From assembly GCA_016934855.1 (NCBI GenBank), contig JAFGSA010000052.1, positions 6,220 to 70,219 of the forward strand: a stretch of 64,000 bases of DNA, written 5' to 3'. Each line of letters begins with the position of its first letter. The first letter of the stretch is position 1. The position numbers and the translations under genes are program-made. The stretch comes from Elusimicrobiota bacterium. Lineage in GTDB: Bacteria > CG03 > SLGR01 > JAFGSA01. The notes below the pieces were generated by a model that saw only the letters and a list, made by a program, of their open reading frames with translations, was not told the DNA's origin and made no database searches. Shown here piece by piece: positions 2,603 to 48,721 of the stretch.

Positions 2603-2681
2603 CTTCCGACTCCTTCATCTAAACCGTTTTTAGATTTTATTAAATACGCGATAAAAATTCAACCTCCGGAAAGCTCCGGAT

Positions 2682-3044: not shown

Positions 3045-3092
3045 GATGGACAACCTCTCCTTCCGGTACCTTTATTATTTCATTCATCGCTG

Positions 3093-5285: not shown

Positions 5286-5305
5286 CAGCTGCCTTTTCCG
5301 GAAAC

Positions 5306-5905
5306 TCAGCCATTCATGACCGCCTTGATCTTTTCCGATACAATACCGTATTTCTCCGCGAAACCGGACTCCAGTCCCGCCTGCCTGCCGGCCATCTGAG
5401 CGCAGGACGACTTGTCCCCTATGCCTTTCGCGTTTATATGATAGTTCATCATGCCGCCCCTGAAACATGAACCCGCAAGTTCAGACGAAATACCCACATC
5501 GGTGATTATGTTAGCGAATTTCCCGAGATCGAGCGAGCCGGCTACATCCAGCAGTTCACAGCTCTTCTCGGCTATCTCCAGCGAGACAAGCGCTGATGCC
5601 TTAAGAGCGGCCTGGAGTTTTTCCCCTCCCTGCCTCCACGCGGCGAGCACCTCTTTGAACCTTGCGCTGTCTTCTTCCGCAAGAGAAAGCATCTTCTTCT
5701 GTATACCGAGGAGCCTGCTCTCCGCAGCGAGAGCCTCCCCGTTCTGCCGGTCTTTTTTCAGCACCGCTATCCTGAGCGACATGAGCAAGAGAGCGCATGC
5801 CATCGAACCGATGACTCCCAGCGCGTTTCCGCCGCCCGGAGTACCGCTGTCCGAAGACAGCTTCTCAATATATCCGCCCAGAGAACTTTCAGTTAAACTG
5901 TCCAT
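5306..5905 (-). CDS. formiminotransferase-cyclodeaminase (FTCD_C)-like domain protein
   Basis: GTPGGGNALGVIGSMACALLLMSL matches the cyclodeaminase / methenyl-THF cyclohydrolase glycine-rich motif. SD GGAAGG precedes the ATG. Confidence 0.6.
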   Translation of the reverse strand: MDSLTESSLGGYIEKLSSDSGTPGGGNALGVIGSMACALLLMSLRIAVLKKDRQNGEALAAESRLLGIQKKMLSLAEEDSARFKEVLAAWRQGGEKLQAALKASALVSLEIAEKSCELLDVAGSLDLGKFANIITDVGISSELAGSCFRGGMMNYHINAKGIGDKSSCAQMAGRQAGLESGFAEKYGIVSEKIKAVMNG

Positions 5906-6176
5906 TTATCCTGACCTTCCCTTCTTCTACAAGGATCCTGGCCAGGGGCGTTACCAGAGCCCCCGGCGGGATATTTACCGTCATCGAGCCTTTTCTCATC
6001 TCGTCCAGGAGATACTTCTCCGTTATGAGAGCGCGCGCGGAAGCCATTTTTCCGCCGGACAGCGTTCTGCCGGTGAAGAACCCCCGTTTAAAATCATCCT
6101 TCCCGCTCTTTCCTGTCTCCGCCGCCTGTGAAAAAGCGTCTACTATCATATCGGCGATGAGTTCATCTCTTACCAT
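5889..6176 (-). CDS. small hypothetical protein (95 aa) with an amphipathic N-terminus, BMC-locus associated
   Basis: SD AAAGGGG precedes the ATG. The N-terminal helix DELIADMIVDAFSQAA resembles encapsulation peptides. The C-terminus has a GALVTPLARILVEEG motif also found in the TIM N-extension. Confidence 0.55.
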   Translation of the reverse strand: MVRDELIADMIVDAFSQAAETGKSGKDDFKRGFFTGRTLSGGKMASARALITEKYLLDEMRKGSMTVNIPPGALVTPLARILVEEGKVRINGQFN

Positions 6177-6259
6177 TAAATACCCCTTTTCTCGATACTG
6201 ACGATCACGGAAGACCGGGAACAGGCCGCGGCTCCCTGATCATCAGAACCGGCCTTTTC

Positions 6260-6559
6260 TCAGCTTTTCTTTTTCAGATGCCCCTGGGGGAGTATCATCT
6301 CGAGATCCTCATGAGGCCTCGGTATAACGTGAACGCTCACCAGTTCTCCGACCTTCTGAGCGGCCGCCGCGCCGGCTTCCACAGCCGCCCGCACAGCTCC
6401 TACTTCTCCCCTGACCATAGTCGTCACGTAACCGTGCCCTATCTTCTCGTATCCCGCGAGATCGACCTTGGCAGCCTTCACCATCGCATCGGACGCCTCT
6501 ATCATCCCTATCAGCCCGATCGTCTCGATCATTCCCAACGCAAACTTAGATTCCGCCAT
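6260..6559 (-). CDS. BMC-H shell protein (PduA/EutM-like hexamer)
   Basis: [26 protein letters not shown]...[19 protein letters not shown] is the canonical BMC (PF00936) domain. A strong AGGAGG SD precedes the ATG. Confidence 0.93.
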
Positions 6560-6578
6560 TTTATACCTCCTGTTTTCA

Positions 6579-6716
6579 GTTTTAAGTTTTAAGCTTTAAG
6601 CTGTAAGCTCAATAATCCGCGAAAATATGAAAATCCATTCATAACATCATCAGTTAATTGATTTTCTTTTCCTGTCATTTCTTTGTCTTATAACTTACAG
6701 CTTACAACTTACAACT
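6579..6716. repeat. long imperfect inverted repeat (about 23 bp arms built from TTTAAG/CTTACA heptamer-like units) flanking an AT-rich roughly 80 nt spacer, between the aldolase and BMC-H genes
   Basis: Left arm tttaagttttaagctttaagctgtaagct and right arm ttataacttacagcttacaacttacaact are reverse complements with 3 mismatches. Confidence 0.6.
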
Positions 6717-8120
6717 CTAGTACTTGCTGTCGGATTTTCCTCCCGTCACTATGGCAACCGACGCCGACGCACCTATCCTGGTCGCTCCGGCTTTCACCAT
6801 CGTATCCGCATCTTCGCCCGTGCGTATTCCGCCTGATGCTTTGACTCCCATCGCAGGGCCGACGGTCTTTCTCATCAGGCTTATATCCTCGGCAGTAGCG
6901 CCTCCCGGGCCGAAACCGGTAGATGTCTTCACGAAGTCGGCGCCGGCATTCTTTGATATCTCGGACGCTTTTACTATCTGCTCCTTGCTGAGAAGCGCGG
7001 TCTCCAGGATTACCTTGAGAATTTTGCCCCGCGTCGCTTCCCTCACGGCTTTAATGTCATCCTCCACCAGCCGGTAGTTGCCTCCCTTCAGCGCTCCCAC
7101 GTTTAGGACCATGTCTATCTCGTCGGCACCGTTCGCTATCGCGTCGCGGGCTTCTATGGCCTTTACCGTAGGCGTGGTAGCTCCCAGGGGGAAACCTATC
7201 ACGGTAGTGACCCCTACGCCTGAGCCTTTCAGCAGTTCGCTGGCCATCTTCACGTGAGTCGGGTTCACGCAGACGGTGGCAAATTTATATTTTTTTGCTT
7301 CTTCACACAGTTTCCCTATCTGTTCCTGCGTCGCGTCCGCCTTGAGATTCGTATGGTCTATGAGCCTGGCAACATCAGCGGGCACTCCCGACGTGACCTG
7401 TTTCGAAGATATCCTTGATGCGCCGGCATCGATTATGGATTTAACCTCATCCTTGCGGTTTATCACGCAAAGCCCGCACTCCGCGCATGATTCGATACCC
7501 GGACAGGCTCCCGGCCTGGCCGTTTCTCCGCCGACCGGCACCACGTTCCTCAGGTTCATGATTTCAGCAGTCTTCTTCGCCAAATTCCTGCTGAGAGTTA
7601 TCTCGGCGCCCAGGTTTTTTATCGTGTTTATATACTCGTTTATCCTGCGCATGTAAAGTGACGTGACAGGAGGCTCGGGCGCATTACAGCACAATACCGA
7701 ATCCCTGGCCATTATTATCTTCTTTCCGTACCTCATCGCCATGAGGATGAGATTGCTGGCAGCGTTATCAGGCAGCATGTTTGCTATTTTGGATGCCCCG
7801 TTCAGCGTCAGGACAGGCACTATCACGGCATCCAGTTTCTCTACGAATCCCCTGTCCCACATCTCTTTCTCCGTAGCTATGTCGCAGCCGCCGGCTTCCT
7901 GTACTTTCTGCTTGCCGATGATACGTTCGGCGGCCGGAGTCAGAAAAGCGCGGAACTTCATGCCCATGTCCCTGAGACACCTCACCTGTTTAAGCGACGT
8001 TTCCACCTCCCTGTCCCCGCCCATGAATATGAGCAGGACGTTTTTTGCGGACGCATCTTCCCCCTTAAGCCTGTTTATCGTCTCCCTGGTCACTTTCTGT
8101 ATGAAATTCTCGTCTGCCAC
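6717..8120 (-). CDS. deoC: fusion of a flavoprotein-like (HFCD/SpoVFB-like) domain with deoxyribose-phosphate aldolase (DeoC/DERA)
   Basis: The C-terminal half ([12 protein letters not shown]...VKTSTGF...ASGGIRT) is a class I DERA. The N-terminal roughly 150 aa ([10 protein letters not shown]...[21 protein letters not shown]) resembles the PF02441 flavoprotein fold, and a Cys-rich linker ([13 protein letters not shown]) joins the halves. GTG start with SD AAGGAGGA. The N-terminal amphipathic helix [13 protein letters not shown] looks like an encapsulation peptide. Confidence 0.85.
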
Positions 8121-8129
8121 GGCTCCTCC

Positions 8130-8438
8130 TTAATGATATTTTTTCGTCTTATTCCCTGCCGAAACACTGTCTACTATGCCGGCTATTATCGTCCTGGTCG
8201 GCCCCTTACCGGCCCCCATCATCTGCCGGCAGGAAGATCCCTCGTCGATTATGAGCACCGTATCGCCGGGACCCGCATCCATGCTGTGGTCTATCGCAAG
8301 CTGTACCGGACCCGACCTGGTCCCTTTCATCCCGTCTACCGGACATATTAGCATCAGCTTTTTCCCTTCGAGCGAAGGATGTTTTCTCGTTGCCCAGACG
8401 TTCCCTACAACTTTTGCTATAAACATATAAATTCGCAT
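8130..8438 (-). CDS. BMC-P vertex protein (EutN/CcmL family pentamer)
   Basis: 102 aa with the EutN_CcmL pattern IAKVVGNVWATRK...GDTVLI...GAGKG. Confidence 0.88.
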   Translation of the reverse strand: MRIYMFIAKVVGNVWATRKHPSLEGKKLMLICPVDGMKGTRSGPVQLAIDHSMDAGPGDTVLIIDEGSSCRQMMGAGKGPTRTIIAGIVDSVSAGNKTKKYH

Positions 8439-8500
8439 CTCGTGAAGCGCATTTCGTGAAGCGTGCTATTCAGATGTATTTTTCCCGGACGATTCACTTT

Positions 8501-8815
8501 TTACGTTTCACCCTTCACTAAATTTACTCCGTCTATTATGCCTATCACCGCGTTATGGCATATAGGCTCTTCCTCGAAAGCCTGGCATGCTTCTTTAGAG
8601 GAAACATAAAAGACATATTCCGAATAGCCTGCACCGACCGCGTCGAGCGCCAGCACCGATTTACCGCTGTCTTTCGGACTTATATCCTTCCCGCCGTTCA
8701 CAGCTTCCGCCACCTCTTCCCAGGTCATCGGCTTCAGCATCAGTATCTTCTTCCCTCCGGTATTAGGGTACTTGCTGGTAGCTACGACCCTGCCTATGAC
8801 CCTGCCGGCTTTCAT
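8501..8815 (-). CDS. BMC-P vertex protein (EutN/CcmL family), second paralog with an insertion
   Basis: MKAGRVIGRVVATSKYP... is the EutN/CcmL N-terminal signature. An atypical roughly 25 aa insertion is present. The stop overlaps the downstream RpiB start. Confidence 0.82.
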   Translation of the reverse strand: MKAGRVIGRVVATSKYPNTGGKKILMLKPMTWEEVAEAVNGGKDISPKDSGKSVLALDAVGAGYSEYVFYVSSKEACQAFEEEPICHNAVIGIIDGVNLVKGET

Positions 8816-9252
8816 CTTTTCTCCATGTCCGCTATAAGGTTAATCCTGCGTTCGTGGCGGCCGCCCTCGAACCCGGTCCTGAGGAAAGCGTCTACTATCT
8901 TCTTCGCCTTTGCGAAAGAGGTAAAATCTGCTCCCAGGCAGAGGATATTCGCGTTATTATGCTTCGCGGCCATGACCGCGGCTTTCGCGGTCCTCACGGT
9001 GACTCCCCTTATGCCTTTCACCTTGTTGACGGCGATGCATACTCCGAGCCCGCTCCCGCATACCGCTATTCCCTTTTCCGCCCTTTTCCCCGAAACATCC
9101 ATGGCTACTTTTTCCGCGTATACGGGGTAATCAACGGAAGCCGGTCCGTCCGTACCGTTATCTATTACTTCGTGGCCGGACGCTACCAGGAACTTCCTTA
9201 TCCTGTCCTTGAGCGCATATCCCCTGTGGTCCGATCCGACGGATATCTTCAT
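8812..9252 (-). CDS. rpiB: ribose-5-phosphate isomerase B / LacB-like sugar-phosphate isomerase (catalytic Cys retained)
   Basis: MKISVGSDHRGYALK...IAVCGSGLGVCIAVNK...GGRHERRI is the RpiB/LacAB family, with the CGSG catalytic cysteine. Confidence 0.88.
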   Translation of the reverse strand: MKISVGSDHRGYALKDRIRKFLVASGHEVIDNGTDGPASVDYPVYAEKVAMDVSGKRAEKGIAVCGSGLGVCIAVNKVKGIRGVTVRTAKAAVMAAKHNNANILCLGADFTSFAKAKKIVDAFLRTGFEGGRHERRINLIADMEKR

Positions 9253-9256
9253 ATTT

Positions 9257-9706
9257 TCACCTGTAATACCTGTCTTCGACGGATTTCACCTTGTCCAGCC
9301 TTTTCCGGTGCCTTCCCTCGCCGAAGGGAGTCTCCAGCCATTGGGTCACTATGTCACGGGCGAGAAGCGTACCCAGCATCTTGCCCCCGAGACAGAGCAC
9401 GTTGCAGTCGTCGTGCTCGGAAGCGTACGCTCCCGTAAGATGGTTATACGCCGTGACAGCCCTTATGCCCCTGACCTTGTTTGCCGTCAGGCAGACCCCC
9501 CCTCCGGTTCCGTCTATCAGTATGCCCCTGCCGTAATCTCCCCGCGATACGGCTTCGGCCACAAGCAGCGCGTAGTCGGGGTAATCGCAGGATTCTTCCG
9601 AATACGTGCCGAAATCTATCACGTTATGCCCTTTTCCCTGCAGAAATTTTTTAATATCTTCTTTTAAGGCGAAACCGCCGTGGTCCGATCCTATTACTAT
9701 ATTCAT
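9257..9706 (-). CDS. RpiB/LacA-like sugar-phosphate isomerase paralog (catalytic Cys replaced by Asp)
   Basis: MNIVIGSDHGGFALK...ILIDGTGGGVCLTANK...GEGRHRKR is the same family, but with DGTG in place of CGTG. SD AGGAG precedes the ATG. Confidence 0.85.
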   Translation of the reverse strand: MNIVIGSDHGGFALKEDIKKFLQGKGHNVIDFGTYSEESCDYPDYALLVAEAVSRGDYGRGILIDGTGGGVCLTANKVRGIRAVTAYNHLTGAYASEHDDCNVLCLGGKMLGTLLARDIVTQWLETPFGEGRHRKRLDKVKSVEDRYYR

Positions 9707-9788
9707 TTTCTGGTAACTCCTGATCCGTGTAATATGTCATGTGAAATGTGTAACGTATAAATATCAAATTCAGATGAAACCGGATGGA

Positions 9789-9810
9789 AATCTACTGCCA
9801 ATCTATTGCC
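9789..9810. repeat. tandem direct 11-mer repeat (aatctactgcc / aatctattgcc) in the 184 nt intra-operon gap between BMC-T and the RpiB pair
   Basis: Two adjacent 11-mers differ by one base; read directly from the sequence. Confidence 0.5.
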
Positions 9811-9890
9811 AGAATAACAATCTTCTGCAAATTGAAAATAATTTCTAAGCATGAAATTTCCCTGCACTTCGCATATTACAACTTATACAA

Positions 9891-10439
9891 TCACAGCACG
9901 CTCTTCCGCAGGTCTTTATGCGGACTCGGGATTATGACCCTTCTTATGAGTATCCCTTCTTCTTTTATCGAACCGCACCCCGCGTTCACCGCCGACCGGA
10001 CGCTGGCGACATCCCCGGTCATCGTAACATACGCTTTTCCGCCGAGAGCGTTTGCCAGCCTCACGTCTATGAGCCTGATATCGGCTGCCTTCGCCGCGCT
10101 GTCAGCGGCTATTATGCACGACGCGACCGAAAACGTTTCTATGATGCCCAGCGCCCCGATCTCCGAGACGTCAGACGTGCCCCTGATAGCAGGAACAAGC
10201 TGGTCATGCACGTTCTTTATTATCAGTTTATCGACCAGCGCGTCTTCTGCCAGGTTCAGGCCGCTTTTCAGAGAACTCTCCACATCGGCCGTCGAACCGG
10301 TTATAAGGACTATGAACTTGCCCGGGCAGACGGAATGGGCTTCCACCAGTTCGCTGCCAGCAGTTTTCAAAAGGGCATCGGTGACCTCAAACCCTTTGGC
10401 CACACTGCATAATTCTATCAATCCTATCGCGTTGCGCAT
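9891..10439 (-). CDS. BMC-T shell protein (tandem BMC-domain, PduT-like pseudohexamer)
   Basis: Two BMC domains (IGLIELCSVAKG... and IGALGIIETFSVAS...). The likely start is MRNAIGLIEL at 10439, 10 nt after the PduS stop, with a GGAG SD. Confidence 0.85.
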   Translation of the reverse strand: MRNAIGLIELCSVAKGFEVTDALLKTAGSELVEAHSVCPGKFIVLITGSTADVESSLKSGLNLAEDALVDKLIIKNVHDQLVPAIRGTSDVSEIGALGIIETFSVASCIIAADSAAKAADIRLIDVRLANALGGKAYVTMTGDVASVRSAVNAGCGSIKEEGILIRRVIIPSPHKDLRKSVL

Positions 10440-10449
10440 ATTTTGCTCC

Positions 10450-11766
10450 TCAGCCGGATATCTCGATATACTCACTGCTAAAGCCCTTCACGGTGCCGCT
10501 TATGCTGGAGTGGACCGCCGCGCCGAGCTTATCTGCGGGTATCCCGGCCAGCAGGTCTCCCTTTTTCACCCTGTCGCCCTCACTTACTACGGGACTTGCC
10601 GGTGTCCCTATATGCTGGCTGAGAGGTATTCTGACTTTTCCGGTATCCACGGTCTTGACCCTGATATCGTGCATATCGTATGAATCTATATCAAGCCGGG
10701 CCATAAGCCTGTCCGTATTGACTCTTCTGAATTCCCTTTCCGGATGCGCCTTGAGATCCGAAAGCGAATGGGGATTCTTTATCCCTTTCTCCGCGAGTTC
10801 CTTCTTCGTCTTCCTGAGCATGTCCCGGGGGGACAGATCAAGGGGGCACGCGTACATATTGCATAACCCGCACTCGCTGCACAGGTACGCGTTCGTAAGA
10901 TGCACCTGATCGCCGCCGATAAAAAAGTTCCTCATGATCATGTGCGGCGAGAGGTTGTGTCCCAGCAGGTTCCTTGGGCATACTATAGTGCAGTCGAAAC
11001 ACTGATCACAGGTGGATTTGGCCCTTCTGGCCATGGCCTCGAAACCGGCACTGTGCTTCGCCACAAGAGGATGATCGGGCTTCAGCACTATCAGTCCTCC
11101 GCAGAGCTTCGTTATACTGAAGGATCTCTCCACCACCTTGCCCATCATGGGACCGCCGGCTATCACGGCATAATCTTTCAGCAGAGGTACGGCCCTGTCT
11201 ATAAGTTCTCCCGCGGATATGCCCACGGGCACCTCCGCGATATACGGTTCTTCGACCTCACCGGCGACTGTTACCCACCTGGTTACCACCGGGGTATCGC
11301 TTTCCACCGCAGCATTTATATTCACAAGAGTGTTTACATTTATCACGACCGCACCGACGCTAAGAGGTATGCCTCCTTCCGGGATGATCCTCCCGGTTAT
11401 GTTATATACCAGCTCGAACTCGTCTCCGGCGGGGTAATAGTTATCCAGGAGCGCTACCCTGACGGATTTATCGCGGGCGGCTGCCTTCCTGACAGATTCC
11501 GCAGCTTCCGGATACTTTTTTTTCAGCGCGATAAAGACGTTTTTCGCCCCCGTTGTTTTTTTCACGTGCCCCAGACCCTGCATTATCTCGGCGGCACGGT
11601 TTTCCATCAGATACCTGTCCGTACTCAGCAGAGGCTCGCACTCGGCTCCGTTGGCTATCACGGTATCGACGGAGGCCGCTATCTTGACATGCGCAGGGAA
11701 TCCGCCCCCGCCTGCGCCTACGACTCCCGCTCTTCTGACTCTTTCGATAATATCCTTTTTCTCCAT
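10450..11766 (-). CDS. pduS: PduS/RnfC-like NAD(P)H-binding Fe-S flavoprotein (BMC cofactor-recycling oxidoreductase)
   Basis: N-terminal GAGGGGFP (Complex1_51K/SLBB region), two 4Fe-4S motifs (CDQCFDCTIVCP and CSECGLCNMYACP), and a C-terminal RnfC_N-like barrel segment PLSQHIGTPASPVVSEGDRVKKGDLLAG. Confidence 0.85.
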   Translation of the reverse strand: MEKKDIIERVRRAGVVGAGGGGFPAHVKIAASVDTVIANGAECEPLLSTDRYLMENRAAEIMQGLGHVKKTTGAKNVFIALKKKYPEAAESVRKAAARDKSVRVALLDNYYPAGDEFELVYNITGRIIPEGGIPLSVGAVVINVNTLVNINAAVESDTPVVTRWVTVAGEVEEPYIAEVPVGISAGELIDRAVPLLKDYAVIAGGPMMGKVVERSFSITKLCGGLIVLKPDHPLVAKHSAGFEAMARRAKSTCDQCFDCTIVCPRNLLGHNLSPHMIMRNFFIGGDQVHLTNAYLCSECGLCNMYACPLDLSPRDMLRKTKKELAEKGIKNPHSLSDLKAHPEREFRRVNTDRLMARLDIDSYDMHDIRVKTVDTGKVRIPLSQHIGTPASPVVSEGDRVKKGDLLAGIPADKLGAAVHSSISGTVKGFSSEYIEISG

Positions 11767-11811
11767 CCTATGATATCAATGATCTGGGTCTCGCCGGCTG
11801 TCTGTCCCGCG

Positions 11812-13242
11812 TCATACTATCCTGAAATAGTCCACAAGGGTGCAGCGCAGCGGGCGGGTGAATGTCTTCGCGCTTACCAGCCCGTCACCCGTAGGCGTGG
11901 CTATGGAAAGCGATGCGAACCCTTCTCCCATTCCGAGCCCCATGTAAGACGGGCCGTTTTTTACGAATATGGAGCATGCCGCGGCATAGGCCATCTTCGT
12001 CAGCCTGTCCACGTTCAGTGAATGCATCACGGCAGTGTGCCCGTTGCCTCCCTCCATCTCCACGGCAAGCTGTATAGTCCTGTCGATGGAACCGGTCCTT
12101 GCAAACGGGAGTATCGGCATGAGCTGCTCGGTCCACATAAAATCGTGTTTTTCGTCGACGAGGCCCCACAGCAGCCTTACATCTTCCCGCAGATCGATAC
12201 CCAGCGCGTTCTTCGCAATAAAAGAAGCGTTCCTGCCTACATACTCGCGGTTCAGCACGGGTTCCCTGCAGCCGGCACCGCCTTTTACTATCGCGGCAGA
12301 CGCGAGCCTGTCCATCTGTTCCGGCGACAGTTCGTGAACCCTGGGATCTTTTCTCATTCTCTCCAGCACAGCCTCGGCCGCGCCGTCTGCCAGAAGGACT
12401 TCTTTTTCCGCCGTGCACAGTATGCCGTTATCGAAACTGGCCCCCCTTATTATCGAATCCACCGCTTTTTCGAAATCGGCGGTTTCGTCGACAACTACCG
12501 GAGGGTTCCCGGGCCCGGCGGCGATGACTCTCTTACTGCTTTTCATCGCTGCCGCGACTACCCCCGGGCCTCCGGTCACAAGAAGAATCCTTATATCAGG
12601 ATGAGTAAACAGGGTCTGTGCTCCCTCGATGCTGGGGGTTTTCATCGCGGTTATCAGCCCCCTAGGGCCGCCGCTCGCCGCTATGGCGTCTGAAAGGATC
12701 TGCATAGTATACTGGGAGACCTCCCTGGCAGCGGGATGCGGGGCGAATACCACGGAATTGCCCGCCGCTATTATGCTTATAGAATTATTTATTATCGTAG
12801 ACGGAGGATTGGTCGAGGGAGTAACGGCTCCTATGATCCCGTAAGGCGCCCTTTCCACGAGAGTCAGCCCGTTGTCCCCGGTGAAAGCTTCGGGACGCAG
12901 ATCTTCGACACCCGGCGTTTTTTCCGCGGCCAGGGTGTTCTTCAGCACTTTGTCTTCCCACCGGCCCATCCCGGTCTCCCTGCTTGCCATCTTCGCAAGC
13001 GTCTGAGCTTCTTTAAGGGAAACACGGCGCATCGCATCAATCAGTCTCTTCCTGGTCTCAAGATCCGTATCCCTGAGCTTTCTCTGCGCTTCCTTCGCGG
13101 CCAGGATCGCCTCTTCCATCGTCTGGAAAAGTACCCCGTCACCCGAGGAGGCGGCAGGGCCGTATGATACGCCCTTCTCCTTCTCCATCCTTGATATTAT
13201 CTCTCTTACCACGTCTGATATCTGCTTCTCGTCTACATTCAT
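11812..13242 (-). CDS. CoA-acylating aldehyde dehydrogenase (PduP/EutE-like) with an N-terminal encapsulation peptide
   Basis: Aldehyde dehydrogenase fold with the catalytic-Cys region ILCTAEKE. The N-terminal amphipathic helix ISDVVREIISRM is followed by a linker. The ORF-track start at 13257 is TTG; the ATG at 13242 follows the SD GAGAGG. Confidence 0.85.
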   Translation of the reverse strand: MNVDEKQISDVVREIISRMEKEKGVSYGPAASSGDGVLFQTMEEAILAAKEAQRKLRDTDLETRKRLIDAMRRVSLKEAQTLAKMASRETGMGRWEDKVLKNTLAAEKTPGVEDLRPEAFTGDNGLTLVERAPYGIIGAVTPSTNPPSTIINNSISIIAAGNSVVFAPHPAAREVSQYTMQILSDAIAASGGPRGLITAMKTPSIEGAQTLFTHPDIRILLVTGGPGVVAAAMKSSKRVIAAGPGNPPVVVDETADFEKAVDSIIRGASFDNGILCTAEKEVLLADGAAEAVLERMRKDPRVHELSPEQMDRLASAAIVKGGAGCREPVLNREYVGRNASFIAKNALGIDLREDVRLLWGLVDEKHDFMWTEQLMPILPFARTGSIDRTIQLAVEMEGGNGHTAVMHSLNVDRLTKMAYAAACSIFVKNGPSYMGLGMGEGFASLSIATPTGDGLVSAKTFTRPLRCTLVDYFRIV

Positions 13243-13301
13243 TCTCATACCTCTCAAAGCTTGATACGGGTCCGCTTCCGGTATTCGCCGTGGATCGGCG
13301 G

Positions 13302-13595
13302 CTACTTGGTTTTTCTGAAGATAACCTTCCCTTCTTTCTCTATGTAATCCACTATTCCCATTACCGTGCAGTCTACCGGCCTGTTCTCGGTGGCATCCGT
13401 CATCCTGGCGGATGACCCCTTGACGAACAGGACTACCTCCCCCTCTCCGGCTCCCACTGAATCGATCCCCACCTGCGGTGCCGAAGTAGGCTTGAGATTA
13501 TCGTCTACGGGCTGTACCAGGAGAAGTTTCCTCCCCTGGATTTTTTCATCCTTTACGGTGCAGACCACGTTTCCTGTTATTATTCCGAATTCCAT
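13302..13595 (-). CDS. BMC-P vertex protein (EutN/CcmL family), third paralog
   Basis: MEFGIITGNVVCTVK...GEVVLFVKGSSAR is the EutN_CcmL pattern. Confidence 0.88.
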   Translation of the reverse strand: MEFGIITGNVVCTVKDEKIQGRKLLLVQPVDDNLKPTSAPQVGIDSVGAGEGEVVLFVKGSSARMTDATENRPVDCTVMGIVDYIEKEGKVIFRKTK

Positions 13596-13620
13596 GCTTG
13601 TTCTCCTTTAAGACTGACGC

Positions 13621-13917
13621 TCATTTTACAGGTCTTATGGGAAGCAGTTCCTCCAGATCCCGGAAAGGATATGGGATGACATGGGCGCTCATCACTTTCC
13701 CCACCCGGTTAGCCGCGCTGCAGGCCGCATCTACGGCCGCCTGGCAGTCCGCCACGGAACCCCTGACCAGCACCGTCACTATCCCGTCTCCGGTTTTCCT
13801 GTAACCGGCTATCTGGACCTTCGCCGTTTTCAACATGACATCGGCCGCTTCCACCATGGCAGTCAGTCCCATGGTCTCGATCATGCCGAGGGCTGTCATG
13901 TCCCTGTCAATATCCAT
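13621..13917 (-). CDS. BMC-H shell protein (PduA/EutM-like hexamer)
   Basis: ALGMIETMGLTAMVEAADVMLKTAKV...VTVLVRGSVADCQAAVDAA is the BMC domain. An alternative start at 13899 (MTALGMIET) is plausible. Confidence 0.9.
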   Translation of the reverse strand: MDIDRDMTALGMIETMGLTAMVEAADVMLKTAKVQIAGYRKTGDGIVTVLVRGSVADCQAAVDAACSAANRVGKVMSAHVIPYPFRDLEELLPIRPVK

Positions 13918-13923
13918 AACGCT

Positions 13924-14541
13924 TTAACATATAAAAACCTTATCGCCGTTTTTCAGATCACACGAATTGGCCTCGTCCGTATCTATATGACACTCGAGCC
14001 TGTATTTATCGCTCACACGCACCAGCACGTTTTCGAATACGACCGACCTGGATCCGGCTGTCCGGATGCGGACCTCCTGCTTGTCTGCGAGATTGAATTC
14101 TTCGGCGTCCGCGGGGGTCATATGAATATGCCTTCTGGCTACGATCACTCCCTCTTTTATCTGCAGGGATCCCTTAGGCCCGATAAACCTGGCCCCGCCG
14201 GAGCTCTTTATATCCCCGGATTCCCTGACCGGGACTTCTATCCCGATCCTGTAGCTGTCGGTCCTGGATATCTCGGCCTGGGTTATCTTTCTCGCGGGGC
14301 CGAGTACCCTTACGTTCTTGAGCGTGCCCCTGGGTCCGAGTATATCTATCGTCTCCCGCGCAGCGTATTCGCCGGGCTGCACCAGGTCCCTCAGTTTGCG
14401 CAATTCGTATCCGCTCCCGAAAAGCGCCTCTATGGCTTCCCGGGTCAGATGCACGTGCCTGTTGGAGATATTGCAGATGACAGGTTTATCCATCCTCCCG
14501 AGTCTCTTAACAACTTCTCCTGCGATCTTAGATATGTCCAT
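13924..14541 (-). CDS. pduL: phosphate acyltransferase PduL (PTAC) with an N-terminal amphipathic helix
   Basis: Two PduL repeats, NISNRHVHLT...GPRG and ARRHIHMTPADAEEF...ECHIDTDEAN. The N-terminal helix is ISKIAGEVVKRLGRM. Confidence 0.9.
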   Translation of the reverse strand: MDISKIAGEVVKRLGRMDKPVICNISNRHVHLTREAIEALFGSGYELRKLRDLVQPGEYAARETIDILGPRGTLKNVRVLGPARKITQAEISRTDSYRIGIEVPVRESGDIKSSGGARFIGPKGSLQIKEGVIVARRHIHMTPADAEEFNLADKQEVRIRTAGSRSVVFENVLVRVSDKYRLECHIDTDEANSCDLKNGDKVFIC

Positions 14542-14623
14542 ATCAGCCGCTTAATACGTAACGCGTTATATGTAAAGGGAGAAATAATCTATAAGCCGCC
14601 TGCTGCCTCATTATTCTCCCCGG

Positions 14624-15520
14624 TCAACCCCTGAATTTTACTATGCTTGCAAATGAACCGGCCTCAAGACTGGCCCCGCCGACCAGACCTCCGTCTACGT
14701 TCTCCTGCTTCATTATGTCCGAGATGTTATCCGGTTTTATGCTCCCTCCGTATAGGATCCTGATATTCTGGGCGAGTTCTTCCGTGAACATCTCCGAGAG
14801 GGTATTCCTTATAAACTTGTGCGCTTCTTCGGCCTGTGCGGGAGTCGCCGTCTTTCCGGTACCTATCGCCCAAACGGGTTCATATGCTATGGTCAGCGCT
14901 TCCTTTTCATCTTCACTTAGGTCGGCCAGCCCGCCGGAGAGCTGTTTCTTAAGAACTTCGAACGTCTTTCCCTTCTCCCTTTCCTGGAGCGACTCGCCTA
15001 TGCATACTATGGGCTTCAATCCTTCTTTCACGGCGAACTTCAGCTTTTTATTGACTGTCCCGTCCGTGCACCCGAAATACTGCCTTCTCTCGGAATGCCC
15101 TATTATGACCCACTCGCATCCGCATTCCCTGAGCATCGGCGGAGATATCTCCCCCGTGTAAGCGCCGTTCTTTTCCGGATACATGTTCTGCGCGCCCAGG
15201 GCGATGTTGGTCCCCTTCAGAAGTTCGCCTGCCAGGTTCAGCGCGGTATAGGGAGGCGCAACCATTATATCTACGTCGGTTACACCGGCGACCTTGTCTT
15301 TAAATGCCTTTATGAATGCAACGGTCTCGCTGCCGGTCTTATTCATCTTCCAGTTTCCAGCCATCAATGGTCTTCTCATCAGTTCCTCCGTTATCTCGAT
15401 ACCATGGGTATCCGCCGCTTCCCTGGCCATAGGAGTGACAAGCGTCCCCTTCGTCAGGGATACCCTCCTTTTTCCGCTCCTTATTGCTGACATTATGTCA
15501 ACATATTTGTAAATTCCCAT
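14624..15520 (-). CDS. tpiA: triosephosphate isomerase with a roughly 48 aa N-terminal extension
   Basis: The core MAGNWKMN...IAYEPVWAIGTGKTATPAQAEE...GGSIKPDN is TIM. The extension MGIYKYVDIMSAIRSGKRRVSLTKGTLVTPMAREAADTHGIEITEEL precedes it. The start codon abuts a predicted promoter. Confidence 0.88.
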   Translation of the reverse strand: MGIYKYVDIMSAIRSGKRRVSLTKGTLVTPMAREAADTHGIEITEELMRRPLMAGNWKMNKTGSETVAFIKAFKDKVAGVTDVDIMVAPPYTALNLAGELLKGTNIALGAQNMYPEKNGAYTGEISPPMLRECGCEWVIIGHSERRQYFGCTDGTVNKKLKFAVKEGLKPIVCIGESLQEREKGKTFEVLKKQLSGGLADLSEDEKEALTIAYEPVWAIGTGKTATPAQAEEAHKFIRNTLSEMFTEELAQNIRILYGGSIKPDNISDIMKQENVDGGLVGGASLEAGSFASIVKFRG

Positions 15521-15526
15521 TTAGAA

Positions 15527-15555
15527 AATATACTATTATTTTATTATACAGTCAA
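15527..15555 (-). promoter_or_regulatory. predicted sigma70-type promoter of the BMC operon (TTGACT-17 nt-TATATT, overlapping a TGTATAAT element), 6-7 nt upstream of the tpiA ATG
   Basis: Reverse-strand sequence TTGACTgtataataaaataatagTATATTttctaaATG sits in an AT-rich 72 nt intergenic gap. Confidence 0.5.
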
Positions 15556-15592
15556 GCAAAAATATTAAATATTTTATAATTTATAAGATATG

Positions 15593-16693
15593 TCAGTTGA
15601 AACCCATGACCCTGTTGCGCCCCTGTTCTTTGGCCATATACAGCCGGCTGTCTGCCATATTGATCAGATCATCGAAAGTTTCCATATTATCGGAATATTC
15701 GGCGACTCCTATTGTGACCGTCATGCCGTAATCGCACCGGTTATGCGTAAAAACCGTTTCTTCGATGTTCTTCCTGAGCCTTTCCGCCAGTACGGACGCT
15801 TTCCTGCCGGCCGTCTCCGGCATCATGACCACGAATTCGTCGCCGCCGTACCTGGCGCACAGGTCGGCCGCCCTGGTGCTCTGGAGTATCAGCTTAGATA
15901 TGTGTATGAGCGCCTGGTCGCCTACCTGGTGCCTGTTGGTATCGTTGAAATCCTTAAAATTGTCTATGTCGATAAAAACAAGCGACAGAGCACGCCCGTA
16001 CCTTTTTGCCTTCTCGAATTCCTTGTGCATGTGCCGGAGGAAATATCTCTTTATGTACAAACCTGTCAGGCCGTCTGTAATAGCCAGTTCGTACATCCTT
16101 GCATTGTTTATGGAGACAGCTGCATGGGACGCTATTATGGACATAAGCCGCTCATCGTTCCTTATAAACTGTTCCCCGGTGATCTTGGAATCCAGGTTGA
16201 CGACTCCCAGGAGCTCACCCTTGAATATCAGGGGAAGAGAAAGAATGGTCTCCTTCGGCAAGGCATCATCCGGGAATATCTCCTTGTAGAACCTGTTTTC
16301 CGTCGTGTCGTTTACCAGAACTGGTTTTCTGGTATACGCCACTCTGCCCGCGATACCTTCTCCTATCTTCAACTTCACATTCTCTACGGCCCTCGGGCTT
16401 AGCCCCAGGGATTCCCTTATCCGCAGGATGCCTTCCTTCCTGTCATAAAGCATTATAGAACCTTTTTTTACTTTGCCAGCTTTCACGAACGCTCCCATGA
16501 TTGCGGGAAGCAGCTCGTTCATCTCGAGATGCGAGGACATGTCGCTAGAGAGCTTCTGCAGCAGTTTCAGGTCATGGACAGCCTGACGGAGAAATCCGGT
16601 CCTGTTCCTCAGCCTGAAATAATTCTTCAGCAGGAATAATATTCCTGAAACAATTGCCAGTATTAATACGGAACAGAAGATCCGGCCGGTCAC
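15593..16693 (-). CDS. membrane-anchored GAF-GGDEF diguanylate cyclase
   Basis: N-terminal TM segment, a GAF-like region, and a GGDEF domain with an intact RYGGDEF active site. The start overlaps the upstream permease stop by 4 nt. Confidence 0.85.
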   Translation of the reverse strand: MTGRIFCSVLILAIVSGILFLLKNYFRLRNRTGFLRQAVHDLKLLQKLSSDMSSHLEMNELLPAIMGAFVKAGKVKKGSIMLYDRKEGILRIRESLGLSPRAVENVKLKIGEGIAGRVAYTRKPVLVNDTTENRFYKEIFPDDALPKETILSLPLIFKGELLGVVNLDSKITGEQFIRNDERLMSIIASHAAVSINNARMYELAITDGLTGLYIKRYFLRHMHKEFEKAKRYGRALSLVFIDIDNFKDFNDTNRHQVGDQALIHISKLILQSTRAADLCARYGGDEFVVMMPETAGRKASVLAERLRKNIEETVFTHNRCDYGMTVTIGVAEYSDNMETFDDLINMADSRLYMAKEQGRNRVMGFN

Positions 16694-17586
16694 AGGCTGA
16701 GCTCCTCCGGGTAGGGCTTACCCACGGCTGCCGGCGGTTCGGATCTCCCTATAAGCCCGGAAAGCACTATTATAGTCAGCAGGTATGGTATGGACTGGAT
16801 GAACTGGCTGGGTATGTTTACTCCCATAGTCTGGACATGTATCTGTATGCTCTCCGCAAGGCCGAATATCAGCGCCGCCCCGGTCGCTCCCAGAGGTGTC
16901 CACTTGCCGAATATCATGGCTGCCAGCGCGATAAAACCCCTGCCGCTGGACATATTGGATGTGAACTGCGACTGCTGCATTGCGAGCCATGCGCCTGCCA
17001 GGCCCGCCAATGCTCCGCTTATCGCGACCCCGGAGTATCTCATCAGCCATACGTTTATTCCGAGACTGTCCGCCGCCGCCGGATTTTCCCCGCACGCCCT
17101 GAGACGCAGTCCGAAAGGAGTCTTGAAGAGGATTACATGCGCCAGGACCACGATGAAAACAGTTATGACTATCACCGGGCTTATGCCGCCGATCACAGGA
17201 AAAGTAATAAGCTTCAACGGTATTATCCTCGCGGAATTCGATGAACTTCCGAAAACAAGAATAAGGAAGAATTTTGTTATGCCTACAGCGAAGATATTGA
17301 TCGCTACTCCGCTTACTATATGATTCACCTTGTACCTTATGCAGCTTACGGCGTGGATGACGGAAGTGATTATCCCGCCGGTCACTCCCGCGATAAGACC
17401 GAGCCACGGATTCCCCAGGTAATATGTTCCCACTACCGAACAGAAAGCGCCGTTCAGCATTATCCCTTCCAGCCCTATATTTATAACCCCCGAACTCTCC
17501 GAAAAGACGCCGCCCACGGCCGCCAGTATGTAAGGGACGGATATCCTGACAGTCTGCAGTAAAATATTCAGGACGAAATCCGTCAC
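16690..17586 (-). CDS. ABC transporter permease (nucleoside/simple-sugar type, BMP-system)
   Basis: 298 aa polytopic permease; its start is coupled to the upstream permease stop. Confidence 0.8.
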   Translation of the reverse strand: MTDFVLNILLQTVRISVPYILAAVGGVFSESSGVINIGLEGIMLNGAFCSVVGTYYLGNPWLGLIAGVTGGIITSVIHAVSCIRYKVNHIVSGVAINIFAVGITKFFLILVFGSSSNSARIIPLKLITFPVIGGISPVIVITVFIVVLAHVILFKTPFGLRLRACGENPAAADSLGINVWLMRYSGVAISGALAGLAGAWLAMQQSQFTSNMSSGRGFIALAAMIFGKWTPLGATGAALIFGLAESIQIHVQTMGVNIPSQFIQSIPYLLTIIVLSGLIGRSEPPAAVGKPYPEELSL

Positions 17587-18710
17587 TATTTCCTCCTGAG
17601 CCCTTCCCGGGAAACCTGTTCCCCTATTATGGCGTCGGCTCTCTGCGTATCCGGCTTATCGTCTCCGGTCGCTGAATTCCTCAGGAGTATCCTGGAAAAG
17701 ACGGTGTTTCCCACGACCACGCTCAGTATGACAACAGCCTGGAGTATATCAAGGATCTCCTTGGGCACCACAGAGTTAACAAGAAGGCTTCCGAAAGAAA
17801 GCCCTCCGAACAGAAGGCTTGCGGCTATGATGCCGAACGGATGGTTTTTCCCGAGCAGAGCTACTGCTATCCCCATGAATCCCACGCCTCCCGAAAAGCC
17901 CTGTTCGAAATAATACTTGTAACCCATGACATAATTGGAACCGACCAGCCCCGATATGCCGCCCGAGACGGCCAGCGTCACGATCATCATCTTCGAACTG
18001 TCAACCCCCGCGTACTCTCCCGCAGCAGGGTTGTAACCCATTGCTCTCAACTCGTAACCAAACCTGCTTAAATACAATATATACCATACAGCCAGCGCCG
18101 CTGCTAACGCTATAAAAAAACTGAAATTGAGCGAAGAACCCTTAAAACCCGGAAGTATGCCGGCGATGGCCGGGAGCCGCGCCGCAGCTGCTATCTGCGG
18201 CGTCCTCACTGTTCCGGGAACGAAGAAATGGCTCGTGACTATATAGTTAGTGAAAGCGAGAGCAATGAAATTCAGCATGATGGTGGTTATAACTTCGTGG
18301 GCTCCGGTCTTTGCTTTCAGCATACCAGGGATGAATCCCCAGGCCGCACCGCCGGCCGCGGCGGCGGCAAGGCACACGGGAATCAACAGCAGCCCGGGCA
18401 GCCCTGAAAAAACACAGCCTGTCCAGGCGCACAGGAGCGATCCCATGTAAAGCTGTCCTTCGCACCCGATATTGAACAGACCCGCCTTGAAGGCGAATGC
18501 GACCGCAAGTCCCGTAAATATCAGGGGGGTCGCATAAAAAAACAGCTGTCCTATGCCGTAAAGATTCCCGAAAATGCCGGAGAATAGAATGGAATATACG
18601 AAGAAAGGATTCTTCCCTGTGATGAGGATGAATAGCGCTCCCACCGCCAGAGAGAATAAAACAGCCATGAGCGGCACCGCCAGGTTGATCATCAGGGTCT
18701 TTCTTTTCAC
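17586..18710 (-). CDS. ABC transporter permease (nucleoside/simple-sugar type)
   Basis: 374 aa polytopic permease overlapping the ATPase stop. Confidence 0.8.
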   Translation of the reverse strand: MKRKTLMINLAVPLMAVLFSLAVGALFILITGKNPFFVYSILFSGIFGNLYGIGQLFFYATPLIFTGLAVAFAFKAGLFNIGCEGQLYMGSLLCAWTGCVFSGLPGLLLIPVCLAAAAAGGAAWGFIPGMLKAKTGAHEVITTIMLNFIALAFTNYIVTSHFFVPGTVRTPQIAAAARLPAIAGILPGFKGSSLNFSFFIALAAALAVWYILYLSRFGYELRAMGYNPAAGEYAGVDSSKMMIVTLAVSGGISGLVGSNYVMGYKYYFEQGFSGGVGFMGIAVALLGKNHPFGIIAASLLFGGLSFGSLLVNSVVPKEILDILQAVVILSVVVGNTVFSRILLRNSATGDDKPDTQRADAIIGEQVSREGLRRK

Positions 18711-20236: not shown

Positions 20237-20246
20237 CTTTTAAATT

Positions 20247-21290
20247 CTATTTTTCTTCCAGCTGGATCTCTATTTCTCCGTCAATTATTTTCCGTTTCAG
20301 TTCTTCGACCCTCGATATGATATCCGGCGATATCAGGAACCTGTTGTTTTCGTCGTATATGTATCCGACCCCGTTATCCTTCAGACCCAGCTGTTTTATC
20401 CCTCCCTCGAACTGCCCCGTCATCTTATTCCTTATTATATGGTAGACGGAGACATCCACTCTCTTTATCATCGATGTCAGGATATTGCCGGGAGCCTCAT
20501 GATACTGGTCCGAATCCACTCCTATGGCGAGCATATCCTTTTCCCGGGCCGCCTCGAATACACCCAGCCCCGTAGATCCCGAAGCATGGTATATTATATC
20601 GGCGCCGCTATGGTACTGAGACAGGGCCAGTTCTTTTCCCTTAGCCGGGTTTTTGAACGCCTCGCCCGTCACGCCGGCATAGGCCACGAGCACCCTGCAG
20701 CCGGGATTTACTTCTTTCACTCCCTGCACGAAACCCGTTTCGAACTTGTGTATTAACGGTATATCCATCCCTCCGATGAACCCTACCGTGCCGGTTTTTG
20801 TCATCAGACCCGCTATAGAGCCCACGAGGAAAGAGCCTTCCTGTTCACTGTAATTTATAGCGGCGAGATTATCCGGGACGTTCAAGCCTTCGGATATATT
20901 ATAGTCGATACACACGAAATCGACATCGGGAAAATCATTGGCTATCCTGGTTATATCGTCCGTGAAAAGTATTCCTATGCCGAACACGAGGTCGAATCCC
21001 CTGGATGCGAACATCCTCAACGCCGATTCCCTGTCCGCGCCGGATCCGGGCTCCACATATTCCGTGTATATATCGAAGTCCGCCTTGGCCTTTTCGAGCC
21101 CCCTGTACGCGGAATCATTAAAGGATTTATCTCCGCGGCCGCCTATATCGAAGACCAGCCCTACCTTCAGCTTCCCGGCGGATCCGTCGTTTTTACCGGC
21201 AGTGCATCCCCCAAGGAGAAAAACGGATATGAACAAGAATTTTACAGTCGAACTCATTTTAAACCTCTGTTTTTTACCAGTCTTCATCAA
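20247..21290 (-). CDS. BMP-family (PnrA/Med-like) nucleoside-binding lipoprotein, the substrate-binding protein of the ABC importer
   Basis: Lipobox LLGGC, then KVGLVFDIGGRGDKSFND typical of basic membrane protein/purine-nucleoside receptors. An alternative start MSSTVKF at 21257 avoids overlap with the 5'-nucleotidase. Confidence 0.8.
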   Translation of the reverse strand: MMKTGKKQRFKMSSTVKFLFISVFLLGGCTAGKNDGSAGKLKVGLVFDIGGRGDKSFNDSAYRGLEKAKADFDIYTEYVEPGSGADRESALRMFASRGFDLVFGIGILFTDDITRIANDFPDVDFVCIDYNISEGLNVPDNLAAINYSEQEGSFLVGSIAGLMTKTGTVGFIGGMDIPLIHKFETGFVQGVKEVNPGCRVLVAYAGVTGEAFKNPAKGKELALSQYHSGADIIYHASGSTGLGVFEAAREKDMLAIGVDSDQYHEAPGNILTSMIKRVDVSVYHIIRNKMTGQFEGGIKQLGLKDNGVGYIYDENNRFLISPDIISRVEELKRKIIDGEIEIQLEEK

Positions 21291-46537: not shown

Positions 46538-46538
46538 C

Positions 46539-47927: not shown

Positions 47928-47943
47928 ATTGAAAGGAGAAAAA

Positions 47944-48708: not shown

Positions 48709-48721
48709 AAAGGAAGGAATC

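Follow-up and report, generated by a model that had tools for sequence, protein, structure and literature searches.

The sugar-phosphate-utilizing (SPU) type of bacterial microcompartment (BMC) was delineated in 2014 on the basis of eight loci (PMC4207490), and the 2021 catalogue lists more than 280 SPU loci from 26 phyla in seven subtypes (PMC8217296). Herein, subtype SPU1 comprises 62 loci that occur exclusively in Elusimicrobia (Sutter et al. 2021, Supplementary Data 2, PMC8217296). As catalogued, it encodes a deoxyribose-phosphate aldolase (DERA) and an RpiB-type isomerase beside two BMC-P genes, together with an aldehyde dehydrogenase (AldDH), a phosphotransacylase (PTAC), a triosephosphate isomerase (TIM), a triplet of BMC-P proteins, and a pair of BMC-H paralogs (PMC8217296). 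The interface motifs of these BMC-H proteins are catalogued as KAAK/PRPH and KAA(N/D)/PQPH (PMC8217296). PduS and PduT, where present in SPU1, often lie in a satellite locus (PMC8217296). The locus described here occupies positions 5306-15560 of a 64,000-nucleotide stretch of contig JAFGSA010000052.1 from an Elusimicrobiota bacterium (GCA_016934855.1); this whole 64-kb stretch is referred to as the window. Local variations aside, the locus matches the SPU1 subtype and thus a type already catalogued, not a new system. It probably encodes a catabolic metabolosome that handles deoxyribose-5-phosphate (dR5P) derived from scavenged (deoxy)nucleosides.

The DERA of an SPU6 locus has been purified and cleaves dR5P (Dwyer et al. 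2024, PMC11585597). The ribose-5-phosphate isomerase (RPI) of that locus carries an Asp in place of Cys66, is inactive on ribose-5-phosphate (R5P), and forms a stable complex with DERA; its role was called enigmatic (PMC11585597). For gene clusters of Hodarchaeales, SPU-type shells were assembled and imaged (Du et al. 2025, preprint, PMC12747264), and enzymes bearing an encapsulation peptide (EP), including "Flav+DERA", were recruited to SPU-type shells (PMC12747264). An earlier, sequence-only reading of the window had stated that SPU loci are known by comparative genomics alone and that their chemistry is untested. This statement is outdated because the 2024 SPU6 assay (PMC11585597) and the 2025 preprint (PMC12747264) report DERA activity and shell assembly.

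According to the open reading frame (ORF) list and the profile searches, the locus consists of 15 ORFs, all on the minus strand, of which the first starts at 15520 and the last ends at 5306. The spacing of the genes lies between the extremes of a 17-nt overlap and a 184-nt gap. Families were called with Pfam and NCBIfam profiles, and the assigned families exceed the curated cut-offs. The genes are given in their 5'-to-3' order:

14624..15520, minus strand: TIM with an N-terminal extension of ~50 aa (approximately 15380-15499); PF00121 E 1.6e-99 over residues 51-296
13924..14541, minus strand: PduL-type PTAC; PF06130 E 1.1e-75, PRK15070 263 bits
13621..13917, minus strand: BMC-H paralog 1 (BMC-H1); PF00936 E 1.8e-25, interface motifs KTAK / PYPF
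13302..13595, minus strand: BMC-P 1 (pentamer, vertex protein); PF03319 E 8.7e-29
11812..13257, minus strand: CoA-acylating AldDH; PF00171 E 1.1e-33, PRK15398 597 bits, EutE-type matches
10450..11766, minus strand: PduS-like Fe-S flavoenzyme (metabolosome NADH dehydrogenase, MNdh); Complex1_51K E 1.1e-43, RnfC_N, Fer4_17
9891..10475, minus strand: tandem-domain BMC-T of the PduT type (BMC-T^SE); two PF00936 stretches E 1.2e-40, TIGR02526 eut_PduT E 9.1e-41
9257..9706, minus strand: RpiB paralog 1 (RpiB1), SPU type with Asp at the Cys66 position; PF02502 E 8.5e-52
8812..9252, minus strand: RpiB paralog 2 (RpiB2); PF02502 E 8.7e-50, with D9, H10, C66, H99, N100, R133, and R137 all kept
8501..8815, minus strand: BMC-P 2; PF03319 E 6.9e-17
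8130..8438, minus strand: BMC-P 3; PF03319 E 3.7e-23
6717..8120, minus strand: DERA, 467 aa; TIGR00126 293 bits against a cut-off of 117, PF01791 E 2.5e-18
6260..6559, minus strand: BMC-H paralog 2 (BMC-H2); PF00936 E 1.2e-28, EutM E 6.8e-38, interface motifs KAAK / PRPH
5889..6176, minus strand: 95-aa protein (orf95); amphipathic segment at the N terminus, followed by a linker and, at the C terminus, a PduM-C-like module
5306..5905, minus strand: FTCD_C-like protein (cyclodeaminase / methenyl-THF cyclohydrolase fold); PF04961 E 2.2e-28

The fifteen co-oriented, closely packed genes of the sequence-only reading are borne out by the ORF list, the last two genes having been left undescribed there. 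Its shell set of two BMC-H, one tandem, PduT-type BMC-T, and three BMC-P proteins is exact in count and passes the profile searches, and profile matches confirm each member of the AldDH/PduL/PduS core, the two RpiB-type isomerases, and TIM. DERA was named as the signature enzyme, and its catalytic lysines are in place, with D336/K398/K427 aligning with D102/K167/K201 of Escherichia coli. The proposed SPU class holds as well and can be narrowed to the catalogued SPU1 subtype.

Two independent JGI metagenome contigs (L083 and L084) contain the same 15 genes in identical order at 41-92% protein identity. They also have the flanks in common with the window, i.e. a GAF-GGDEF gene upstream and genes for a DnaA-like ATPase, a response regulator, and an aminotransferase downstream. 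The arrangement is, therefore, not due to chance; selection maintains it as a conserved unit. Each of the 15 reading frames is intact and carries its catalytic motifs, and the base composition is even over locus and flanks. No additional gene for a shell protein, DERA, AldDH, PduL, or PduS is found elsewhere in the 64-kb window. The locus adds an intact, compact, and complete example of a metabolosome type that ranks among the most widespread and yet the least studied, and it leaves the general picture of SPU organelles unchanged.

As in SPU loci generally, DERA lies beside shell genes and is accompanied by RpiB-type isomerases, of which there are two here, and by an acylating AldDH. The nearest genome loci belong to metagenome-assembled genomes (MAGs) of Elusimicrobia, the phylum of SPU1, and the DERA is 100% identical to an Elusimicrobia MAG protein. 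The layout follows SPU1 with the order RpiB-RpiB-BMC-P-BMC-P-DERA and with AldDH, PduL (the PTAC), and TIM upstream. Likewise shared with SPU1 are the N-terminal EP of AldDH and the lack of both a BMC-T^dp and an alcohol dehydrogenase. BMC-H2 carries KAAK/PRPH as catalogued, and BMC-H1 carries KTAK/PYPF. Typical SPU1 loci (L004, L005, L009, L011, and L013) possess a cysteine-free BMC-T and no PduS, whereas the sole BMC-T of the main locus described here has a CPGK pore motif and adjoins PduS. This integration of PduS and a cysteine-pore BMC-T is common to the window and L083-L085. Further deviations from typical SPU1 are the long-form DERA, which contains an EP and a flavoprotein-fold domain, the extra Cys-type RpiB, and the KTAK/PYPF motifs of BMC-H1.

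Compared with the SPU6 locus of Chloroflexi bacterium GWB2_54_36 (PMC11585597), the DERA catalytic triad, the neighboring RpiB with Asp for Cys66, the AldDH, and the three BMC-P proteins are the same. SPU6 differs by lacking PduS, PTAC, and TIM, by containing a BMC-T^dp, and by a DERA extension of only ~70 aa (PMC11585597). An EP and a long linker are found on the RPI of SPU6 (PMC11585597), whereas the two RpiB proteins of the window are bare. The Hodarchaeales loci (PMC12747264; L087) resemble the locus by a Flav+DERA, an AldDH, an MNdh beside a CPGK BMC-T, a PTAC, an RpiB, and three BMC-P proteins, and the Flav+DERA of the L087-type archaeal locus is 44% identical to the DERA of the window over the full length. 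They differ by a citrate synthase-PTAC fusion, a stand-alone PvmL-like "DUF" protein, an acetate kinase, and one pentamer whose tail is rich in Lys and Arg; in addition, their Flav+DERA lacks the four-cysteine motif described below. In L087 (GCA_016840035.1, a 142-kb contig), the SPU-type locus with the citrate synthase-PTAC and Flav+DERA fusions spans 1699-12638, and the same contig encodes eS30, a ubiquitin-conjugating enzyme, and Arf/Ras-type GTPases. The idea that L087 represents the first archaeal BMC was rejected, as the "archaeal microcompartments" of Hodarchaeales had already been reported (PMC12747264). With the EUT and PDU systems, the locus shares the aldehyde core of an EP-bearing AldDH, PduL, and PduS/PduT as well as the BMC-H/T/P shell. 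Unlike these, its signature enzyme is a cofactor-free class I aldolase acting on a sugar phosphate, and the locus encodes neither a B12 enzyme nor a reactivase nor an alcohol dehydrogenase.

The DERA is a multidomain protein. AlphaFold2 models it, with 36-38 homologs, as an N-terminal helix, a Rossmann-like domain, a poorly ordered stretch, and an aldolase barrel. Its parts are as follows:

8052-8114 (residues 3-23), minus strand: EP-like helix; AlphaFold2 model
7560-8042 (residues 27-187), minus strand: PvmL-like flavoprotein-fold domain; PF02441 E 5e-7, pLDDT >90
7467-7505 (C206, C212, C215, C218), minus strand: motif CP-x5-C-x2-C-x2-C; homolog alignment
6720-7376 (residues 249-467), minus strand: aldolase barrel; profile and alignment

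The barrel is ~65% identical to solved DERA structures, e.g. 5dbu (E 2.8e-80), and the catalytic residues D336, K398, and K427 are invariant across 38 homologs. A sequence search of the N-terminal domain against the PDB gave nothing significant (top match 6jls, E 0.62), which made a fold search necessary. By Foldseek, the domain matches UbiX, TvaF, and CoaC in the PDB with E ~1e-8 and TM scores of 0.6-0.7, and with 31.4 bits, it exceeds the PF02441 cut-off of 22.7. It retains the TPxA and (P)xTxN..K.A...DN motifs of the PF02441 family. GGDR stands in place of the FMN phosphate loop (GS/TGS), and ARDS occupies the PAMN position, so that FMN binding is putative. The four-cysteine motif is kept in most homologs and missing from the clade that contains the archaeal sequences. 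Homology of the N-terminal domain to PduM was considered and rejected, as hhalign aligned only the first 23 residues, i.e. the EP helix, at a probability of 34%. The PduM query used here matches PF15953 (E 2.9e-55).

A search with DERA residues 1-250 among 1.84 billion representatives returned 295 clusters at E <=1e-3, 48 of them at E <=1e-10. Among the 146 matches inspected from 150 listed, 136 are below 340 aa and mostly 240-290 aa long. The short relatives have an EP-like N terminus, and a PF02441 domain was found in all 10 that were scanned. By a strict pattern, 60 of the 136 end in a C-terminal ..TPLAR...GIEI module. As far as the context suffices, every locus with a long-form DERA contains PduS and a CPGK BMC-T (7/7; the window and L083-L088, of which L083 and L084 are near-duplicates), compared with 1/11 of the short-DERA loci (Fisher's exact p = 2.5e-4, a value that ignores shared ancestry). 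The association is a lead and not a result, since it may reflect one SPU lineage alone; as a lead, it bears on the function of the flavoprotein-fold domain.

AldDH contains the catalytic motif CTAEK, with the cysteine at residue 281, and its N-terminal amphipathic helix has a hydrophobic moment of 0.70 over residues 11-24. In PduL, the motifs RHVH, RHIH, and HIDTDEAN are found, and the N-terminal amphipathic helix reaches a moment of 0.77 over residues 3-16. PduS contains GAGGGGFP and two CxxCxxCx3-4CP motifs, CDQCFDCTIVCP and CSECGLCNMYACP. Hence, a PduS with an FMN/NADH site and two 4Fe-4S motifs abuts a BMC-T whose pore motif CPGK is located at residue 50; the start of this BMC-T is the probable ATG at 10439. 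In PduT-type proteins, CP(G/S)K holds a [4Fe-4S] cluster in the pore, and NADH-driven electron export through the shell was demonstrated with homologous MNdh/BMC-T proteins (PMC11626177). The locus has no alcohol dehydrogenase gene, and this absence together with PduS abutting a CPGK BMC-T constitutes the arrangement for which homologs were shown to export electrons. Compared with the described MNdh/BMC-T^SE module (PduS/PduT; Sutter et al. 2024, PMC11626177), the adjacency, cofactor motifs, and CP(G/S)K pore are the same, and no difference is seen at the sequence level. The presence of the electron-export pair in the main locus adds to its practical value.

The two RpiB genes are separated by 4 nt and encode bare proteins of 146 and 149 aa without an extension suited to encapsulation. 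In E. coli numbering, RpiB2 has the catalytic Cys66 and His99, and RpiB1 has Asp66. Aligned with E. coli RpiB, 17 of 21 SPU homologs show Asp at the Cys66 position, in agreement with the literature; counterparts of RpiB2 with the canonical Cys occur in L083/L084, L004, and L001. By analogy with SPU6, the Asp-type RpiB1 probably serves to bind DERA as a partner. Because an Asp-type RpiB is paired here with a canonical Cys-type one, the locus offers a direct handle on whether SPU RPIs are catalytic partners or packaging factors.

Within the shell set, BMC-H1 and BMC-H2 are 52% identical. BMC-H2 is 86-92% identical to its counterparts in related Elusimicrobia loci, and this EutM-like protein is probably the main facet protein. 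The three BMC-P proteins show 33-37% pairwise identity, with BMC-P 1 being 36-37% identical to the other two. BMC-P 2 and BMC-P 3 are adjacent (8130-8815) and placed between RpiB and DERA as described for SPU/SPU1.

Two further features of the window bear on the substrate of the organelle:

15593..22827, minus strand: upstream block of GAF-GGDEF, two ABC permeases, a double ABC ATPase, a Bmp/PnrA-family binding lipoprotein, and a 5'-nucleotidase; Pfam, NCBIfam
48698..49477, plus strand: uridine phosphorylase; TIGR01718 285 bits against a cut-off of 280.3, PNP_UDP_1 E 2.7e-38

Herein, 16690-22827 (minus strand) comprises the Bmp/PnrA ABC transporter and the 5'-nucleotidase, which has an N-terminal hydrophobic segment; judged by its gene families, this part is likely a nucleotide/nucleoside scavenging unit. 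L084 has the genes for the 5'-nucleotidase and the GGDEF protein immediately ahead of its locus and, despite synteny, lacks the transporter. The uridine phosphorylase is a candidate source of (deoxy)ribose-1-phosphate. With 5'-nucleotidase, transporter, and uridine phosphorylase nearby, the neighborhood fits nucleotide/nucleoside scavenging, the pathway proposed for SPU organelles, and the adjacency of the scavenging genes also fits the proposed recycling of environmental DNA.

For the probable dR5P metabolosome, this locus itself establishes which genes are present, their catalytic and cofactor motifs, the folds, and the synteny, and a course of the pathway can be proposed. Nucleosides would be imported by the exposed 5'-nucleotidase and the Bmp/PnrA-type ABC transporter, both encoded just upstream. 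A nucleoside phosphorylase step, for which the window holds the uridine phosphorylase, would lead to dR5P, with a phosphopentomutase also being needed. The dR5P would then enter the shell and be cleaved by DERA into glyceraldehyde-3-phosphate plus acetaldehyde. This reaction, already named as the likely one in the sequence-only reading, is the same as the literature proposal (PMC8217296, PMC11585597). AldDH, by means of Cys281, would convert acetaldehyde, CoA, and NAD+ to acetyl-CoA and NADH, and PduL would recycle CoA and release acetyl-phosphate for ATP synthesis outside the shell. PduS, and not an alcohol dehydrogenase, would regenerate NAD+ by passing electrons on to the [4Fe-4S] cluster that sits in the CPGK BMC-T pore, and TIM would equilibrate the triose phosphates. 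The cargo would be recruited by two routes, i.e. by the N-terminal amphipathic helices of DERA, AldDH, and PduL and by the PduM-C-like module of TIM and the 95-aa protein. The Cys-type RpiB2, by itself or within a LacAB-like heteromer, would be the genuine pentose-phosphate isomerase. Work on homologs has demonstrated the activity of DERA, its complex with RPI, electron transfer by MNdh/BMC-T, the assembly of shells, and recruitment that depends on the EP. What we infer from these data is the in vivo substrate, the direction of flux, the encapsulation of the enzymes, and which roles fall to the RpiB proteins, the flavoprotein-like domain, orf95, and the FTCD_C protein.

Several points weigh against this assignment. 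The dR5P pathway gives RpiB no chemical logic, a point that the SPU literature itself makes. Neither a phosphopentomutase nor an acetate kinase is found in the 64-kb window. The presumed transporter substrate follows from family membership, and the top NCBIfam models lie far below their cut-offs. The proposed scheme leaves the flavoprotein-like domain, the Cys4 motif, orf95, and the FTCD_C protein unexplained despite their conservation. In addition, SPU1 loci and this organism are known from genes alone. The RpiB pair in particular raises the rather improbable alternative that the same organelle has a broader substrate, in which the Asp/Cys pair forms a LacA/LacB-like heteromeric isomerase that prepares other sugar phosphates, including R5P. 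RpiB2 retains every catalytic residue of E. coli RpiB, RpiB1 has the LacA-like Asp, and the tight spacing of their genes (4 nt) agrees with a joint function. The position of RpiB beside DERA is conserved across SPU loci, and the Asp-type RPI of SPU6, inactive on R5P when alone, is still enigmatic in its role (PMC11585597). A ribulose-phosphate 3-epimerase gene also lies within the window, and a transketolase gene follows downstream in syntenic loci. However, the aldolase is a near-canonical DERA by both profile score (TIGR00126 293 bits against 117) and its ~65% identity to solved DERAs, and the locus itself has no transketolase or other enzyme that leads from a pentose phosphate to an aldehyde. 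Moreover, the Asp-type RpiB occurs alone in most SPU loci, and neither RpiB of the window has an extension capable of encapsulation.

It is also conceivable, at a low probability, that the organelle mainly disposes of or recycles fermentation aldehydes instead of degrading deoxyribose, such that external acetaldehyde is oxidized or is condensed with glyceraldehyde-3-phosphate by DERA. The DERA reaction is reversible. For homologous clusters of Atribacteria, "recycling aldehydes" in secondary fermentation was proposed (PMC7542362). Against this stand the 5'-nucleotidase, nucleoside-type transporter, and uridine phosphorylase nearby, which indicate nucleoside catabolism, and the combination of AldDH, PduL, and an NADH-oxidizing exporter, which forms an oxidative, ATP-yielding branch that needs an internal source of aldehyde. 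Moreover, a shell-enclosed DERA would be redundant if it competed with AldDH for the aldehyde. That the locus is a nonfunctional relic or an assembly artifact of a metagenome bin has an almost negligible probability. The source is indeed a MAG, and the locus is known from DNA alone, but 15/15 frames are intact with their catalytic motifs, the base composition is uniform over locus and flanks, and the gene order is kept in independent samples at 41-92% protein identity, which points to purifying selection.

Besides the classical EPs, the cargo of the probable dR5P metabolosome shows a second kind of extension. TIM has its motifs NWK, GHSERR, and YEPVWAIGTG, and its N-terminal extension aligns locally with the C terminus of orf95 with a score of 55, compared with 23+-4 for shuffles (0/1000 shuffles reach 55). 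Both also match the C termini of the SPU "DUF" proteins. By hhalign (E 5e-5), the module common to orf95 and TIM corresponds to the final 42 residues of PduM, and 3 of 10 stand-alone relatives show subthreshold matches to PF15953. Neither orf95 nor the TIM extension matches a Pfam or NCBIfam family, even at E up to 10, and the PF15953 (PduM) profile has no match among the window proteins; the likeness to PduM is limited to the EP helix and the C-terminal module of ~40 aa. Orthologs of orf95 occur in L083 (41% identity), L081, and L002. The TIM of L086 and L088 carries a classical amphipathic peptide where this lineage has the PduM-C-like module, so that the latter may represent another kind of tag for targeting or docking. 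The tag on TIM is, thus, a candidate answer to the question of how cargo without a classical EP is packaged.

A large family of ~260-aa proteins (P0127-P0269) combines an EP-like helix, a PF02441 domain, and the C-terminal ..TPLAR...GIEI module, which is similar to the C terminus of PduM. It includes the SPU "DUF" genes at 2604-3212 of L086, 3888-4607 of L087, and 2639-3403 of L088. The proteins of the latter (L086-L088) align with the N-terminal domain of DERA at hhalign probabilities of 95% and 91%, and the C terminus of one SPU "DUF" protein shows a weak match to E3_binding of 2-oxoacid dehydrogenases (E 0.0055), which lies below the cut-off and is a hint alone. PF02441 proteins are already contained in the BMC catalogue as accessory proteins (PvmL). 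With these, the N-terminal domain of DERA shares the PF02441 match and the UbiX/HFCD fold, whereas the FMN phosphate loop GS/TGS is replaced by GGDR. Compared with PvmL/PduM, the parts are split over three genes in the window, with EP and flavoprotein domain on DERA, EP and module in orf95, and the module on TIM. By its predicted architecture, orf95 resembles a PvmL-type accessory protein minus the flavoprotein domain. A doubtful but conceivable extension is that the PduM-C-like module and the PvmL-like domain, followed by a putatively Fe-S-binding CP...CxxCGxC motif, constitute a modular second targeting and assembly system beside the EPs. DERA would then be wired to the electron export of PduS/BMC-T, for example as a redox sensor or relay, and would be more than a passive scaffold for oligomerization.

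In L081/L082 (HGW-Elusimicrobia-1 type), the region 10001-12235 retains Flav-DERA, one BMC-H, and a small orf95-like gene together, followed by genes for a T2SSE ATPase and a DnaA-like protein. With this remnant set, the other shell and core genes must sit elsewhere in the genome, i.e. the locus is split.

The FTCD_C-like protein matches 1o5h and 7vg4 in the PDB (E ~1e-11). Its gene is the final one of the block in L002, L083, and L084 too and has no evident link to the pathway. Directly downstream of the locus, in the window as well as in L002, L083, L084, and L081/L082, follows the gene of a DnaA-like AAA+ protein (3093-5285, minus strand). This protein reaches the TIGR00362 cut-off and covers model positions 99-345 of 437; because of this span, it is taken to be without the DNA-binding domain IV. 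It contains long acidic and lysine-rich linkers and, in its C-terminal half, paired CxxC zinc-ribbon motifs. On the other side, the GAF-GGDEF diguanylate cyclase (15593-16693, minus strand) is the immediate upstream neighbor in the window and in L083/L084, and this adjacency suggests a possible link of the organelle to c-di-GMP signaling. Farther away, 44328-49477 (plus strand) encodes AllH, FdrA, AllG (oxamate carbamoyltransferase type), a putative cyclase, and the uridine phosphorylase; it is the sole stretch of the window with positive GC and AT skew. At 49985-51940 (minus strand) lies the gene of a 651-aa protein that is rich in hydrophobic segments and has no Pfam match at E up to 1e-4.

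Scanned over its full length against Rfam, the window has no match to a riboswitch or any other RNA family, and terminator-like sites are no commoner than in shuffles. Neither the 184-nt gap between BMC-T and RpiB1 nor the gaps around TIM and PduL yield better folds than shuffles do. The following candidate regulatory features were found:

15527..15555, minus strand: promoter-like site TTGACT, 17 nt, TATATT; consensus scan with 10/12 matches, a pattern match alone
6568..6717, minus strand: long intercistronic hairpin upstream of BMC-H2; 23-nt arms, 87% complementary, with GTAAG-like repeats
6177-6259, minus strand: second stable hairpin flanking BMC-H2; z-score -3.1 against shuffles

The promoter-like site sits in the AT-rich 72-nt gap before TIM. 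The hairpin at 6568-6717 has a fold z-score of -4.8, with 0/200 shuffles folding as well. Both hairpins are absent from L083/L084, where the gap matching 6568-6717 is 19 nt long. As predicted RNA structures on either side of BMC-H2, they may set the relative level of that shell protein.

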